Shown: piece after piece, positions 4,728 to 16,365 of the stretch
Numbering within the stretch: position 1 is the first letter of the stretch
Layout: each line of letters opens with the position of its first letter
Source: a virus
Reading direction: 5' to 3' (one strand)
Length of the DNA stretch: 19,472 nt
Virus genome (UHGV): UHGV-0294315
Notes under the pieces: model-generated
What the model saw: the letters and a program-made list of their open reading frames with translations, nothing else
What the model was told of the DNA's origin: nothing
Databases searched by the model: none
Program-made: the position numbers and the translations under genes

Positions 4728-4797
4728 TACCTCGTTGGATGTTGTTAAAATTCCATTTGTATTTGATCAGAACGCTCGGTTGCCGCCGGGCGTTTTT
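4728..4797 (+). ncRNA. oop: oop-like antisense RNA with intrinsic terminator, overlapping the cII 3' end
   Basis: Plus-strand CGCTCGG-TTGCCG-CCGGGCG hairpin plus TTTTTTATT at 4769-4797 matches the lambda oop terminator as remembered. Possible -10 TATAAT at 4722-4727. The 5' end is approximate. Confidence 0.5.
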
Positions 4798-5038
4798 TAT
4801 TGGTGAGAATCGAAGCAACTTGTCGTGCCAATCGAGCCATATCGTCGTCAACGACGCCCCATTCAAGAACAGCAAGCAGCATTGAGAACTTTGGAATCCA
4901 GTCCCTCTTCCACCTGCTGATCTGCGACTTATCAACGCCCACAGCTTCCGCTGTCTTCTCAGTTCCAAGCATTGCGATTTTGTTAAGCAACGCACTCTCG
5001 ATTCTTAGAGCCTCGTTGCGTTTGTTTGCACGAACCAT
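4745..5038 (-). CDS. cII: Transcriptional activator CII
   Basis: From the internal ATG: MVRANKRNEALRIESALLNKIAMLGTEKTAEAVGVDKSQISRWKRDWIPKFSMLLAVLEWGVVDDDMARLARQVASILTNKKRPAATERSDQIQMEF, essentially lambda CII (97 aa). The track's 5' extension to 5125 is not used. Confidence 0.9.
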   Translation of the reverse strand: MVRANKRNEALRIESALLNKIAMLGTEKTAEAVGVDKSQISRWKRDWIPKFSMLLAVLEWGVVDDDMARLARQVASILTNKKRPAATERSDQIQMEF

Positions 5039-5096: not shown

Positions 5097-5140
5097 TCCC
5101 GCATTTCGGCGGGAATGAGGACCATGACTGTTAAAGAGCG
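5097..5140 (-). promoter_or_regulatory. nutR-like site (boxA plus boxB hairpin) between cro and cII
   Basis: On the minus strand: CGCTCTTTAACA (boxA, rrn-like), then 14 nt, then TCCCGC-CGAAAT-GCGGGA hairpin. The same boxA/boxB pair recurs at nutL. Confidence 0.55.
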
Positions 5141-5146
5141 GTGTTA

Positions 5147-5341
5147 CTATTTGTTTTTCTTGTTGCTTGGGAAAGGACGAACTTCCTCTCCAATCACACT
5201 GCCATCAGGCTTTACCGTAACCATAATGTTACGGCCTGCCAGAATGGCCTTGCTGATAGCGCACTGGATTACACCAAAGTCACTGGCTGCTTTAGCCTGT
5301 CCATGGATTTTGGCGTAATCGGCAAGTGTCATTCGAATCAT
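5147..5341 (-). CDS. cro: Cro repressor
   Basis: [64 protein letters not shown] aligns with lambda Cro along its length. Start chosen at ATG 5341, which sits 6 nt after GGAGA; the track's GTG at 5347 abuts the RBS. Confidence 0.8.
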
Positions 5342-5371
5342 ATGCACTCTCCGTTATTAACCATGAACAAA

Positions 5372-5437
5372 GAATACTACAGGTATTCAAAGCAATCAAT
5401 ACTCAGGGTATTTTTAGTTTAAGTACCTTAGCTATTA
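5372..5437. promoter_or_regulatory. OR operator cluster (three sites) with divergent PR/PRM
   Basis: GAATAC-TACAG-GTATTC (5372-5388, perfect), CAATAC-TCAGG-GTATTT (5397-5413), and a weaker AAGTAC-CTTAG-CTATTA (5421-5437). Centre spacing 25 and 24 bp, between divergent cro and cI. Confidence 0.6.
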
Positions 5438-5447
5438 GAATTAAGCT

Positions 5448-6164
5448 ATGGAAAATAAAAAATCACTGACGACAGAACAGCTCGAAGACGCTAAGCGGCT
5501 TAAGGCTTTGTATGAGTCAAAAAAGAAAGAATTGGGAATAACCCAATACTCAATCGCTGATGAACTGGGTATCACCCAAGGAGCGGTAGGGCATTATCTT
5601 AATGGCAGAAACGCGCTAAACGTTGAGGTCGCATCTGGTTTTGCACGTTTGTTGCAAGTCTCAATTGCTGATTTTAGCCAGTCAATTGCTGCCAAGGTTG
5701 CAGAACAGGCAGAAAGCCTTAAGAGCGATGCCAACGTAAGGTATGCAGGGGAATACAGAGCAGGAAAGAGGTATCCGGTGTTAAGCAGTATCCAGGCTGG
5801 CTCGTGGTGTGAAGCATGCGAACCATACACCATTAAAGACATAGATGTTTGGCTTGAGTCTGACGCGCATATTCAAGGCAATGCGTTCTGGCTTAAAGTG
5901 GAAGGTGATTCAATGACGGCACCGGTTGGGTTAAGCATTCCAGAGGGAACATTCGTTCTTTTCGATACCGGAAGGGAGGCGATCAACGGCAGCCTGGTCA
6001 TAGCAAAACTTTCTGACTCTAACGAAGCAACATTCAAGAAGCTGATAATCGACGGCGGAAATAAATACCTCAAGGGACTTAACCCTGCATGGCCTCTCGT
6101 GCCAATCAATGGAAACTGCAAGATTATAGGCGTTGCAATTGAGACAAAACTAAGGCTGGTTTGA
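5448..6164 (+). CDS. cI: CI-type prophage repressor (HTH N-terminal domain plus S24 LexA-like autocleavage domain)
   Basis: N-terminus LTTEQLEDAKRLKALYESKKKELGITQ resembles lambda CI; C-terminus FWLKVEGDSMTAPVGLSIPEG...ATFKKL...NGNCKIIGV resembles lambda CI / P22 C2. No Shine-Dalgarno upstream, consistent with a leaderless PRM transcript. Confidence 0.9.
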   Translation: MENKKSLTTEQLEDAKRLKALYESKKKELGITQYSIADELGITQGAVGHYLNGRNALNVEVASGFARLLQVSIADFSQSIAAKVAEQAESLKSDANVRYAGEYRAGKRYPVLSSIQAGSWCEACEPYTIKDIDVWLESDAHIQGNAFWLKVEGDSMTAPVGLSIPEGTFVLFDTGREAINGSLVIAKLSDSNEATFKKLIIDGGNKYLKGLNPAWPLVPINGNCKIIGVAIETKLRLV

Positions 6165-6183: not shown

Positions 6184-6552
6184 ATGGTTGGAACCGCTAT
6201 AGCAAGCTTTTTTGGGATGTTGGCAATCTCAACAATTTACGGCTTAGCGCATGCTTTTATTGCGAAATCTCTATCAGAAAAAATAAGCCAGGCTTGGGCG
6301 CATAGATCAGCTCGTTTCATGATTCTAGTGGTCATAGCAATACAAGGGATATCTGCATTTATCCTCTATGGATCAAGCTTATACCTGTTGTATCAAGGCG
6401 CGACATTTACGCCTTACACCAGTGATTACGGAACTCTATACGATGGTAGTGAAGACATCTCTATGGCTTGGATCGTCTTTGGTTTATCTATGGCCGTGTC
6501 TGTTGTAGCAGACATCATTAAGGTAATTCTCGTCTTAACCTTCGCTGACTAA
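6184..6552 (+). CDS. Small integral membrane protein (122 aa, 3-4 predicted TM helices) co-transcribed with cI, in the rex position
   Basis: RBS AAGGGGGA 6 nt before ATG, 19 nt after the cI stop. Hydrophobic segments (e.g. VGTAIASFFGMLAISTIYGLAHAFIA, FMILVVIAIQGISAFILYGSSLYLLY). No family recognised. Confidence 0.6.
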   Translation: MVGTAIASFFGMLAISTIYGLAHAFIAKSLSEKISQAWAHRSARFMILVVIAIQGISAFILYGSSLYLLYQGATFTPYTSDYGTLYDGSEDISMAWIVFGLSMAVSVVADIIKVILVLTFAD

Positions 6553-6637: not shown

Positions 6638-6724
6638 AAATATCCTTTGTATTCATTTGTTTATCATTATTTCATCAAAAATAAATACCTTGGGTATTTA
6701 CACAATAAAATACCTACAGTATTC
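6638..6724. promoter_or_regulatory. OL operator cluster / pL region
   Basis: AAATAT-CCTTT-GTATTC (6638-6654), AAATAC-CTTGG-GTATTT (6683-6699, perfect), AAATAC-CTACA-GTATTC (6708-6724), the same consensus as OR. Candidate -35 TTTACA at 6697-6702. Confidence 0.55.
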
Positions 6725-6770
6725 TTTAGCCATCAGCAGGACGCTGGTAGCCAAACGGAACAGATTGGCA

Positions 6771-6812
6771 GGCTCTTTAACATTGATGGGATTGTCCCGC
6801 CGAAATGCGGGA
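6771..6812 (+). promoter_or_regulatory. nutL-like site (boxA plus boxB hairpin)
   Basis: GGCTCTTTAACA (boxA) at 6771-6782 followed by the TCCCGC-CGAAAT-GCGGGA hairpin at 6795-6812, the same boxB as nutR. Confidence 0.55.
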
Positions 6813-6983: not shown

Positions 6984-7103
6984 ATGTTAGACATCATTAC
7001 CAACCCAATTCTCGGTGGTTTAGTTACCACATTCGCCATCGGCTTCGGTTTCACCATCTGGTCTGAAGTAGATGACTGGATGTGGGAACGCAAAAACAAA
7101 TAA
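6984..7103 (+). CDS. Possible 39-aa single-pass membrane peptide in the pL leader
   Basis: RBS GAGGAA 7 nt upstream; MLDIITNPILGGLVTTFAIGFGFTIWSEVDDWMWERKNK has a hydrophobic core and a charged tail. Short, so coding status is uncertain. Confidence 0.35.
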   Translation: MLDIITNPILGGLVTTFAIGFGFTIWSEVDDWMWERKNK

Positions 7104-7143: not shown

Positions 7144-7449
7144 ATGACAGTAGTCATTACATATCTGGCTGACGATAACGCCAGAAATCGCCGCAGAGCA
7201 CGCAGACAGGCTCAACGTGAACAGGCAATGCAAGAGCAGCGACTGGCGCGAAAAATTGCGCTAAAGCTCTCTGGTTGCGTCAGGGCAGATAAAGCAGCAT
7301 CACTCGGAAGCCTTCGCTGCAAGAAGGCAGAAGAAGTCGATCGTAAACAGAATCGTATTTACTACCGCAAGCCACGCAGTGAAATGGGTGTGACATGCTC
7401 AGGCCGCCAGAAGCAACGCGGAAAATCAATTCCAGCTTATTACGATTGA
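7144..7449 (+). CDS. N: N-like transcription antiterminator (arginine-rich motif; P22 gene 24-like)
   Basis: RBS GGAGGT then ATG; MTVVITYLADDNARNRRRARRQAQREQ carries an arginine-rich motif near the N-terminus and resembles the P22 gp24 start (MTVITY...). First gene after OL/nutL. Confidence 0.7.
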   Translation: MTVVITYLADDNARNRRRARRQAQREQAMQEQRLARKIALKLSGCVRADKAASLGSLRCKKAEEVDRKQNRIYYRKPRSEMGVTCSGRQKQRGKSIPAYYD

Positions 7450-14617: not shown

Positions 14618-14818
14618 ATGCAACACGAACTACAACCTGATTCACTGGTTGATTTGAAATTCATCATGGCTGATACTGGCTTCGGTAAGACCTTCATCTA
14701 TGACCGGATTAAGTCCGGCGACCTGCCAAAAGCCAAAGTTATCCACGGGCGAGCAAGATGGTTATATCGTGACCATTGTGAATTCAAAAATAAGCTCTTA
14801 AGCCGCGCCAATGGGTAA
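14618..14818 (+). CDS. xis: Excisionase / AlpA-family small DNA-binding protein
   Basis: 66 aa, LVDLKFIMADTGFGKTFIYDRIKSGDLPKAKVIHGRARWLYRDHCEFKNKL fits the AlpA/Xis winged-HTH pattern; located immediately upstream of the integrase. Confidence 0.65.
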   Translation: MQHELQPDSLVDLKFIMADTGFGKTFIYDRIKSGDLPKAKVIHGRARWLYRDHCEFKNKLLSRANG

Positions 14819-15090
14819 AATAGCGGGTAAAATATTTTTCACATCTAAAAAACACCATTCCAATCAATCCCCTGCCGCGCCAAGTAGATGTCTGCAGGGG
14901 ACACTTTAAAGACCTTTCTCTACATTTCACTTCATTACATAACCACTTAAAAAAACAGTAAGTTATCACCGAATCGGCCTGATTTTCATTTCAGTTAATT
15001 TCATGACATTACAACCTCGTGATGGTATAAGTGATGGTATTCCCCAGTTCGATATGCAGATACCATCAATCTACCAAAATGAGTACAGAT

Positions 15091-16365
15091 ATGGCCATTA
15101 ATGTGCTTTCCCCCAAACAGATAGAAAACGCCAAGCCGAAGACCAATGATTACAAACTTACCGATGGAGGGAGTTTGTATCTACTGGTACGAAAGACTGG
15201 TGGAAAATACTGGCGTATGAATTATCGTTTTGATGGAAAACAAGTGACATTGGCATTAGGGGTCTACCCAGATGTCTCACTTGCAACAGCGCGGAAACGG
15301 CGTGATGAAGCCAGGCAACTACTAGCCGATGGTCGTGATCCTCGCGAAGCAAAGAAACCCAAAAAGGAAGACCCAATTTCCCCCACGTTCGAGAGTGTTG
15401 CCAGAGAGTGGCATAGTAGAACGATAGGGCATCCTGAGTGGAAAGAGATCACCCGTAAAAAAATTCTCCGAGAAATGGAAAACCACCTCTTTCCTGCCAT
15501 CGGTTCAAAGCCTATCGATACGCTCAAAACCCGTGACTTGATGCCGATGCTGGTTGAGATGACTGAGAAAGGAATTGGTGCCACAACGAGCCGGGTAAAA
15601 ACCACTATGACGAGCATCTTCCGTTATGCCGTGCAACGTGGAATTGTCGATTACAACCCTGCCCACGATCTAAAAGGTGCAATTACGACCCCCAAAGTAC
15701 GACATCGCCCCGCACTACCTCTCGAACGTTTACCTGAACTGTTAGCGAAAACGAGAAGTTACACGGGAAGACCATTGACTCGCCTAGCAGTTCTATTTTC
15801 CCTGCACACTTTTGTGCGATCCAGCGAACTACGACATGCCAGATGGGAGGAGATCGACATTGAAAATGGGCTATGGACGATACCAGGACAACGTGAAGAG
15901 ATCGCAGGGGTTAAATTCTCAGAGCGGGGTGCAAAGATGGGGGCTGCTCATTATGTCCCGCTATCTAGTCAGGCTATCGGGGTACTGGAGGATATAAGGA
16001 AAATCAGTGGTGAATATCTGCTGGTTTTCCCCGGTGACAGCAACCCATATAAACCGATGAGCGAAAACACAGTTAATAAAGCACTGCGAACGATGGGTTA
16101 CGACACTCAAAGTGATGTTTGCTTGCATGGGTTCAGGGCGATGGCCTGCTCTGCACTGACCGAATCAGGACTCTGGTCACGCGATGCAGTTGAACGGCAG
16201 ATGAGTCACCAAGAAAGAAACGAAGTGCGGGCAGCATATGTGCATCTTGCGCAGCACATGCAGGAACGCCGCAGAATGATGCAATGGTGGTCTAATTATC
16301 TGGAACTAAATAAGGACGAATTTCATGCTCCTTATGACTTATCAGGTATTAACATTATCAATTAA
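15091..16365 (+). CDS. int: Tyrosine integrase, P4-type (DUF4102 arm-binding N-terminus plus phage integrase catalytic domain)
   Basis: MAINVLSPKQIENAKPKTNDYKLTDGGSLYLLVRKTGGKYWRMNYRFDGKQVTLALGVYPDVSLATARKRRDEARQLLADGRDP is a typical P4-family integrase N-terminus. Start could also be ATG 15079 or the track's GTG 15031. Confidence 0.85.
   Translation: MAINVLSPKQIENAKPKTNDYKLTDGGSLYLLVRKTGGKYWRMNYRFDGKQVTLALGVYPDVSLATARKRRDEARQLLADGRDPREAKKPKKEDPISPTFESVAREWHSRTIGHPEWKEITRKKILREMENHLFPAIGSKPIDTLKTRDLMPMLVEMTEKGIGATTSRVKTTMTSIFRYAVQRGIVDYNPAHDLKGAITTPKVRHRPALPLERLPELLAKTRSYTGRPLTRLAVLFSLHTFVRSSELRHARWEEIDIENGLWTIPGQREEIAGVKFSERGAKMGAAHYVPLSSQAIGVLEDIRKISGEYLLVFPGDSNPYKPMSENTVNKALRTMGYDTQSDVCLHGFRAMACSALTESGLWSRDAVERQMSHQERNEVRAAYVHLAQHMQERRRMMQWWSNYLELNKDEFHAPYDLSGINIIN

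Follow-up and report, generated by a model that had tools for sequence, protein, structure and literature searches.

An HK620-type immunity switch in a lambdoid prophage: AATAC-N5-GTATT operators at OR and OL and a candidate third leftward operator

In phage lambda, cro and cI diverge from a spacer with three 17-bp operators, of which OR3 is weak; OL1 and OL2 lie over PL, with nutL and N downstream, and the PRM message is leaderless. To our knowledge, the operators of phages P22, 434, 21, HK022 and 933W differ from the AATAC-N5-GTATT type described here. An operator set that does correspond is found in phage HK620, whose record (AF335538; Clark, Inwood, Cloutier, Dhillon, J Mol Biol 2001) annotates OR1-3, pR, OL1-3, pL, nutL, nutR, pRE, and tIMM. 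Phage mEpX2 belongs to an immunity group distinct from those of lambda, HK022, phi80, mEp043, mEp213, mEp235, and mEpX1 (Refardt, Bacteriophage 2012, PMC3442831). A literature search found no binding or footprinting study of the repressor and operators of HK620, HK140, HK630, or mEpX2.

We analyzed the immunity region of UHGV virus genome UHGV-0294315, present in a stretch of 19,472 nucleotides (hereafter the window, meaning the whole of this stretch). The 1.1 kb around the cro-cI spacer was 100% identical to Escherichia phage vB_EcoP-611R6 and shared 98.9–99.3% identity with HK620, mEpX2, HK140, HK630, HF4s, HZ41, and two Stx2c-converting phages. The spacer itself was 100% identical in HK620, mEpX2, and vB_EcoP-611R6, and the OL region was identical to that of HK620, including OL1, OL2, and the sequence at 6638–6654 considered below. 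At the protein level, Cro equals HK620 Cro exactly, and cI differs from HK620 cI by A66T alone, a change that falls outside helices 2 and 3. The HK620 annotations of OR1, OR2, and OR3 mapped to 5372–5388, 5397–5413, and 5421–5437 in the window, and those of OL2 and OL1 to 6683–6699 and 6708–6724, each coinciding exactly with a site of the original prediction. With operators and a repressor DNA-binding domain identical to those of HK620, the region is, by sequence, a member of the HK620 group; outside the immunity region, the neighboring genes of HK620 and of the window are not the same, as expected of mosaic phages.

Very likely, the region serves as the immunity switch of a prophage of the lambdoid group (P22-like, Lederbergvirus-type) that carries the HK620 module, with the AATAC-N5-GTATT sites as operators shared by cI and Cro. 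The original prediction had read the operators as defining a separate immunity specificity, and separateness is supported, both by the difference from the lambda operator and by phage mEpX2, which has the same spacer and cI N-terminal domain as the window and was reported as heteroimmune (PMC3442831). The specificity is not a new one: the operators are 100% identical to those annotated in HK620 since 2001, an outcome that the prediction itself had named as counting against it. The operator finding is, in short, correct but already known as the HK620 immunity module. Of 5426 complete E. coli genomes, 146 carry the segment comprising OR and the cI N-terminal region, in every case in the chromosome, and the module is also carried by some Stx2c-converting phages; for a known module, the significance beyond annotation is slight.

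The genes and signals surrounding the switch are as follows.

4745–5038, minus strand: cII (Pfam Phage_CII, E=1.8e-45)
5016–5029, plus strand: CII-binding repeat of PRE, TTGC-N6-TTGC, inside the cII start; HK620 pRE and its cII binding site are annotated here
5098–5113, minus strand: boxB of nutR, identical to the nutL boxB, between cro and cII
5147–5341, minus strand: cro, 64 a.a., a lambda-type Cro (Pfam Cro PF09048, E=3.6e-26)
5349–5352, minus strand: Shine-Dalgarno GGAG of cro, 7 nt before the cro ATG (anti-SD −7.0 kcal/mol)
5448–6164, plus strand: cI repressor, 238 a.a., with a lambda-type HTH N-terminal domain and a self-cleaving S24 C-terminal domain
6184–6552, plus strand: hkaS-like gene, transcribed together with cI and located where lambda has rexAB (HK620 annotation hkaS)
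6772–6811, plus strand: nutL, with a boxA-like GCTCTTTAACA at 6772–6782 and a boxB hairpin CCCGCCGAAATGCGGG at 6796–6811; HK620 nutL is annotated here
7144–7449, plus strand: N antiterminator, 101 a.a., with an arginine-rich N-terminus, downstream of PL and nutL

The cI protein has the features of a lambda-type repressor, with Pfam matches to HTH_3 (PF01381, E=8e-10) and Peptidase_S24 (PF00717, E=5e-24), an Ala-Gly cleavage site, and a Ser/Lys dyad. Its N-terminal 90 residues gave a gap-free alignment with the DNA-binding domain of lambda cI in structures 1LMB and 1RIO (E about 4e-24), and its QAG, GDSMTAP, and FKKL motifs aligned with VQAG, GNSMTAP, and FKKL of lambda. Cro matched PF09048 over the full length of the profile (positions 1–59 of 59). 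The match of N to the Pfam N_peptide family was weak (E=0.0017, below the curated cut-off), and the hkaS-like gene product showed no Pfam match above the curated cut-off.

Three operators over PR and PRM separate the divergent cro and cI genes, and a second set lies over PL, so that the region displays the tripartite switch anatomy of lambda. The cI N-terminal domain is 53% identical to that of lambda without gaps, Cro belongs to the same fold family, and the divergent genes, the three 17-bp operators, the weak OR3, the OL1-OL2 pair over PL, and the downstream nutL and N are common to both. The two differ in that a single hkaS-like gene takes the place of lambda rexAB and in the distance between OL and OR, which is about 1.3 kb in the window and 2.4 kb in lambda. 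The operators and the promoters that they overlap are as follows.

5371–5399, minus strand: PR, −35 TTGATT (5399–5394), 17-nt spacer, −10 TATTCT (5376–5371)
5372–5388: OR1, GAATACTACAGGTATTC, exact core, PWM score 19.9; OR1 in the HK620 annotation
5397–5413: OR2, CAATACTCAGGGTATTT, exact core, found in the PWM scan; OR2 in the HK620 annotation
5413–5441, plus strand: putative PRM, weak −35 TTTAGT (5413–5418), 17-nt spacer, −10 TAGAAT (5436–5441)
5421–5437: OR3, AAGTACCTTAGCTATTA, weak, two core mismatches, PWM score 9.9; OR3 in the HK620 annotation
6638–6654: candidate OL3, AAATATCCTTTGTATTC, one core mismatch, PWM score 12.9, 45 bp from OL2
6683–6699: OL2, AAATACCTTGGGTATTT, exact core, found in the PWM scan; OL2 in the HK620 annotation
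6697–6725, plus strand: PL, −35 TTTACA, 17-nt spacer, −10 TATTCT, 9/12 consensus matches in the promoter scan; HK620 pL
6708–6724: OL1, AAATACCTACAGTATTC, exact core, found in the PWM scan; OL1 in the HK620 annotation

Exact AATAC-N5-GTATT sites occur at four places in the 19.5-kb window (5373–5387, 5398–5412, 6684–6698, and 6709–6723), compared to 0.01 expected, and none of 200 dinucleotide-preserving shuffles reached this count. All of them are confined to the OR and OL regulatory intergenic regions, where they overlap the PR, PRM, and PL hexamers. OR1 is a 17-bp palindrome, perfect except for its central base. The operator position weight matrix (PWM) was built from these four exact sites and gave a mean maximum of 11.0 in shuffled windows. 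A further motif-like site within the window, at 4748–4764 (AAATTCCATTTGTATTT), scored 11.8, which is level with that shuffled maximum, and was set aside as a chance match. The core of OR3 (AGTACCTTAGCTATT, 5422–5436) has two mismatches, and since sites with up to two mismatches barely exceed chance (17 in the window compared to 8.2 expected, a count attained in 2 of 200 shuffles), it is the position of OR3 rather than the count that supports it: the site lies 24 bp from OR2, with its center at −19 from the cI ATG, the same as lambda OR3.

The original prediction placed three operators with lambda-like spacing between cro and cI, and this was borne out by distances of 25 and 24 bp (24 and 23 bp in lambda) within the span that it had singled out, 5348–5447, which corresponds to the stretch between cro (ATG at 5341) and cI. 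The lambda-like OR/OL architecture was likewise found: OR is tripartite and lies between the two divergent genes, and the OL set precedes PL, nutL, and N. Of the three additional operators predicted to the left of N, OL1 and OL2 have exact cores at a spacing of 25 bp; the third has one mismatch and lies 45 bp off, a placement that is not lambda-like.

The PR promoter matches HK620 pR (L001 2765–2800, corresponding to window 5364–5399) and, with 8/12 consensus matches, falls under the promoter-scan threshold, so it was read from the sequence. OR1 covers the −10 and spacer of PR, and OR2 overlaps its −35 and abuts the −35 of PRM; on the other side of cI, OL1 covers the −10 and spacer of PL and OL2 overlaps its −35. 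OR3 overlaps the spacer and −10 of PRM. The operator centers lie at −19, −43, and −68 relative to the cI ATG (−19, −42, and −66 in the annotated lambda record).

The start of cI at ATG 5448, predicted to lack a Shine-Dalgarno sequence, was confirmed by two observations. An in-frame TAA (5442–5444) two codons upstream rules out an upstream start, and the 21 nt preceding the gene gave an anti-SD duplex energy of −0.6 kcal/mol, compared to −5.8 to −10.5 kcal/mol for ten other window genes with an ATG start (the integrase, with a GTG start and −3.2 kcal/mol, was left out of this comparison). The −10 hexamer TAGAAT lies 6 nt ahead of the ATG, as does TAGATT in lambda PRM. Given that this geometry is conserved, the PRM transcript probably starts at or beside the A of ATG 5448, yielding a leaderless cI message as in lambda. 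The predicted leaderless reading is supported by the lambda start geometry and the missing Shine-Dalgarno sequence, with the message itself deduced from the geometry.

The same arrangement is found in phages of other hosts. In a protein-similarity search, the cI N-terminal domains of the Hafnia phage Pocitis76, the Serratia phage OS31, and the Erwinia phage vB_EhrS_49 were 68–84% identical to that of the window, and all three have the same recognition helix (QGAVGHYLNGRN). Although the spacer sequences of these phages have diverged, three AATAC-type sites remain in each at unchanged distances, and TAGAAT or TACAAT lies 6–7 nt before the cI ATG. Among the matches listed, cI N-terminal domains above 54% identity came only from HK620-group phages, Pocitis76, OS31, vB_EhrS_49, and the Escherichia phage Fostie, and P22, 434, 21, HK022, and 933W were not among the matches listed.

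A DNA-pattern scan of viral contigs, requiring two exact sites next to each other, yielded at least 120 contigs, and the scanned contigs together with the phage loci provided 48 distinct cro-cI spacers adjoining a cI homologue. As ungapped columns anchored at the ATG were blurred by 1-nt shifts, the position of each site was analyzed instead. Across the 48 spacers, the centers of OR1, OR2, and OR3 lie at −66 to −69, −42 to −44, and −19 or −20, respectively. The core was perfect in 47/48 spacers for OR1 and 35/48 for OR2, a perfection partly built into a set picked for two exact sites, and in none for OR3, which carries 1–3 mismatches in all 48. OR3, the −10 hexamer, and the register of the ATG are observations independent of this selection. 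A TAnnAT precedes the cI ATG in every spacer (by 6 nt in 37 and 7 nt in 11), positions −6 to −1 show just 0.0–0.7 bits of conservation, and GGAG, GAGG, or AGGA occurs near the cI start in only 3/47 spacers.

A motif-unbiased set was assembled from genomes found by cI peptide patterns, that is, by protein similarity alone. Prophages of Tatumella, Providencia, Morganella, and Xenorhabdus in this set each have 2–3 AATAC-type sites upstream of cI, and their recognition helices are of the QGAVGHY, QGGVGHY, QGAISHY, or QSAISHY type. In two Yersinia loci, an exact site is accompanied by one with two mismatches, in a variant arrangement. Among the prophages with lambda-type helices (QSGVGAL, QSAIASL), the sites are of the TATCAC type and none is of the AATAC type, the sole match within two mismatches being lambda OR2 (AACACGCACGGTGTT). 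Operator type thus tracks recognition-helix type, as expected if the sites belong to the repressor. Fostie (QSAVGHY) and two Yersinia prophages (QGAVGHY) were left out of the consensus, given their variant OR1/OR2 (AATACTA..AGTACT). Taken together, the sets from other Enterobacterales (Hafnia, Serratia, and Erwinia; Tatumella, Providencia, Morganella, and Xenorhabdus) share with the window the core, the tripartite layout, the −10-to-ATG geometry, and a QG(A/G)VGHY(L/M)NGR helix, with a close variant in Tatumella and Xenorhabdus. They differ from it in their cI N-terminal domains (60–84% identical), their diverged spacers, and the class of OL3, at 21, 29–30, or 45 bp.

Compared to the lambda half-site TATCAC(CG), the window half-site nAATAC has A2, A5, and C6 in common and differs at positions 3, 4, 7, and 8, differences that argue for heteroimmunity. 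The cI helix reads QGAVGHYLNG (QSGVGALFNG in lambda), with the changes S45G, G46A, A49H, L50Y, and F51L, and the lambda residues Gln33, Gln44, and Asn55 are kept. In lambda co-crystals, A2 is read by Gln44, the position-4 base pair by Ser45, and position 6 by Asn55, which fits the half-site positions that have stayed and those that have changed. The Cro helix differs from YQSAINKAIH of lambda by S28C and N31S and keeps Gln, Ala, and Lys at H1, H3, and H6, which fits the published Cro code, where these residues pair with A+2, A+5, and G-6 (Hall et al. 2005, as described in PMC6649833). The operators had been called unlike those of lambda, and this holds for positions 3 and 4; A2, A5, and C6 of TATCAC are retained, as are the cI and Cro residues just named. 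With operators of the form nAATAC-N5-GTATTn, rather than the TATCACCGC type, and a helix that is not that of lambda, the window is not, by sequence, of the lambda immunity type. Judged on sequence, the operator is a recognizable derivative of the lambda recognition scheme, yet distinct in immunity terms.

A further departure from lambda concerns OL3. The candidate (core AATATCCTTTGTATT, 6639–6653, one mismatch) lies 45 bp from OL2, compared to 20 bp in lambda, a placement without lambda precedent. The OL3 annotated in HK620 corresponds to 6661–6677 in the window (TTATCATTATTTCATCA), 22 bp from OL2; this sequence scored −20.8 with the operator PWM and does not fit the motif. We compared 58 distinct related OL regions, in which OL1 and OL2 are 25 bp apart in all except one (24 bp). 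A third site with up to two mismatches was present on the cI-proximal side of 51/58 regions, in discrete distance classes from OL2 of 21 bp (n=14), 29–30 bp (n=10), and 44–45 bp (n=27). In the 44–45 bp class, one core is perfect (L016), and the flanks of some members have diverged. On the N-proximal side, which served as an internal control, a comparable third site was found in 0/58 regions, the best match having at least three mismatches. Based on the PWM scores and the 58-region comparison, we took 6638–6654 as the likely OL3, and the OL3 of the HK620 record is probably misplaced. The broader proposal, in which the HK620-type OL3 sits 45 bp from OL2 (6638–6654) and the family varies this distance between classes of 21, 29–30, and 44–45 bp around an OL1-OL2 spacing fixed at 25 bp, is a tentative one, to which we would give somewhat less than an even chance.

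Each of these readings can be set against another. The palindromes could have arisen by chance in intergenic DNA that is AT-rich, as the modest excess of two-mismatch sites might suggest, or could be bound by some protein other than cI and Cro. The four exact sites are restricted to OR and OL, keep their positions across diverged phages, and occur together with a particular type of recognition helix in the neighboring repressor; these counts, this conservation, and this co-occurrence are direct observations that effectively refute such an origin, to which we assign a negligible probability. Another conceivable reading accepts the operators but has the cI maintenance transcript start further upstream, with an A/U-rich leader and translation lacking a Shine-Dalgarno sequence. 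The PRM −35 is weak (3/6 matches), and a PRE-derived message must carry a leader and would still lack a Shine-Dalgarno sequence. A leader on the maintenance transcript is nevertheless improbable given that TAnnAT precedes the ATG by 6–7 nt in all 48 diverged relatives, that the bases in between vary freely, and that lambda, with its known leaderless PRM message, shares the geometry. Further, the promoter scan found no second promoter-like site facing cI within the cro-cI spacer.

For OL, the alternative is that there are just two functional operators, or a third at 6661–6677, and that 6639–6653 is a chance match in the AT-rich terminator region following hkaS. A single site with one mismatch is not significant in the window (12.9 compared to the mean shuffle maximum of 11.0), the HK620 annotators chose 6661–6677 with its lambda-like spacing of 22 bp, and phage 933W is not known to have more than two OL sites. 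This alternative is unlikely, though less so than an upstream start of the cI transcript, given the strongly negative score of 6661–6677, the discrete classes of cI-proximal third sites set against their absence on the N-proximal side, and the perfect core and diverged flanks within the 45-bp class.

With 6638–6654 as the candidate OL3 and a probably leaderless cI message, the switch can be outlined as follows, with binding, cooperativity, activation, looping, and the transcription start carried over from lambda. Dimers of cI would bind cooperatively at the strong pairs OR1-OR2 and OL1-OL2, each 25 bp apart, blocking PR from OR1/OR2 and PL from OL1/OL2. At OR2, centered 43 nt before the PRM start, cI would abut the weak PRM −35 (TTTAGT), and PRM is probably activated. 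This is not guaranteed, as OR2 at −43 is 1 bp farther from the cI start than in lambda; within the lambda activation patch of cI, Asp38 is kept and Glu34 is replaced by Tyr. At high repressor levels, the weak OR3 over the PRM −10 would be filled and PRM shut off, and the weak OL3 may aid this shut-off via an OL-OR loop of ~1.3 kb. During establishment, PRE, with its CII site at 5016–5029, would supply cI. Upon induction, RecA-stimulated self-cleavage at Ala-Gly (QAG) through the Ser/Lys dyad (GDSMTAP, FKKL) would inactivate cI, and Cro would take over.

The sole additions to what is known of this module are that the HK620 record likely has OL3 in the wrong place and that OL3 distances fall into family-wide classes, and neither this misplacement nor the retargeting of specificity opens a long-standing question. 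The family offers a clear case from nature in which a repressor of the lambda fold and its Cro partner have been redirected from TATCAC to AATAC with the contacts to positions 2, 5, and 6 kept. Should OL3 act in the loop-dependent autorepression of PRM, as its lambda counterpart does, the placement of OL3 would be a module of the switch that can be tuned, and the HK620 region would offer a natural variant in which to test the influence of OL3 position on long-range repression.

The left operator of the window probably departs from the HK620 record (GenBank AF335538) in the position of its third site. The annotated HK620 OL3 (AF335538 7888-7904, equivalent to 6661-6677 in the window) contains no match to the operator motif AATAC-N5-GTATT and scores -20.8 with the position weight matrix (PWM) built from the four exact sites of the window, whereas the conserved third OL site lies at 6638-6654, 22 bp farther from OL2 than the annotated one. 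The same matrix picked out a motif-like sequence in a coding region:

4748-4764, AAATTCCATTTGTATTT, at the 3′ end of cII, with one core mismatch

Given that its PWM score of 11.8 is on a par with that of the top match in shuffled windows, we regard this sequence as probably a chance occurrence.

A further annotation difference was noted in the Serratia phage vB_SspS_OS31 (MT843276), whose repressor, as annotated, is 16 residues, MVGIFNFNSDGIRMTV, longer at its N-terminus. These residues (nt. 2453-2500 of locus L006) correspond to translation from within OR2 and OR3, while the start conserved in the family is the ATG at nt. 2501 (MESKK), 7 nt past a TAGAAT hexamer.

The boxB hairpins of nutR (5098-5113, minus strand) and nutL (6796-6811, plus strand) are identical, CCCGCCGAAATGCGGG, and the Erwinia phage vB_EhrS_49 carries the same boxB and boxA as the window downstream of its OL. 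Beyond nutL lies a small reading frame, for which a Pfam search returned no match:

6984-7103, hydrophobic ORF of 39 codons between nutL and N, with a good Shine-Dalgarno sequence

At the right end of the window, similarity to sequenced phages ends near 14904, between two genes:

14618-14818, TorI-like excisionase gene, the last of the prophage early-left operon
15031-16365, tyrosine integrase gene (domains Arm-DNA-bind_3, Phage_int_M, and Phage_integrase)

Past the integrase, up to 19472, matching E. coli genomes label an HTH regulator, an Icd-like protein, DUF5375, a TOPRIM-DUF927 primase, and Psu; together with the integrase gene, this segment looks like a P4-like satellite directly adjoining the prophage. 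A search for tRNA genes across the window found none.

Among the comparison loci, the assemblies of Shewanella canadensis (L142), a Chromatiales MAG (L143), and Desulfovibrio piger (L147) match phage lambda base for base over the 118 nt up to the cI ATG, a stretch that takes in the entire cro-cI spacer. The cI N-terminus is likewise lambda-identical in two of the three and frameshifted in the other, and contamination of these assemblies with lambda DNA is the most likely source. Separately, an assembly labelled Chryseobacterium sp. (L136) holds a prophage resembling the coliphage Fostie.

Repressor recognition helices closely related to that of the window cI (QGAVGHY) occur in:

Escherichia phage Fostie, L008 2266-2503, QSAVGHY
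Yersinia prophages, L132 and L133, QGAVGHY

The sites upstream of these repressors nevertheless differ in pattern, with OR1 and OR2 in Fostie and the Yersinia prophages following the variant AATACTA..AGTACT (AATGCTACTACAAGTAGGAG), and may represent a neighbouring specificity inside the same family.
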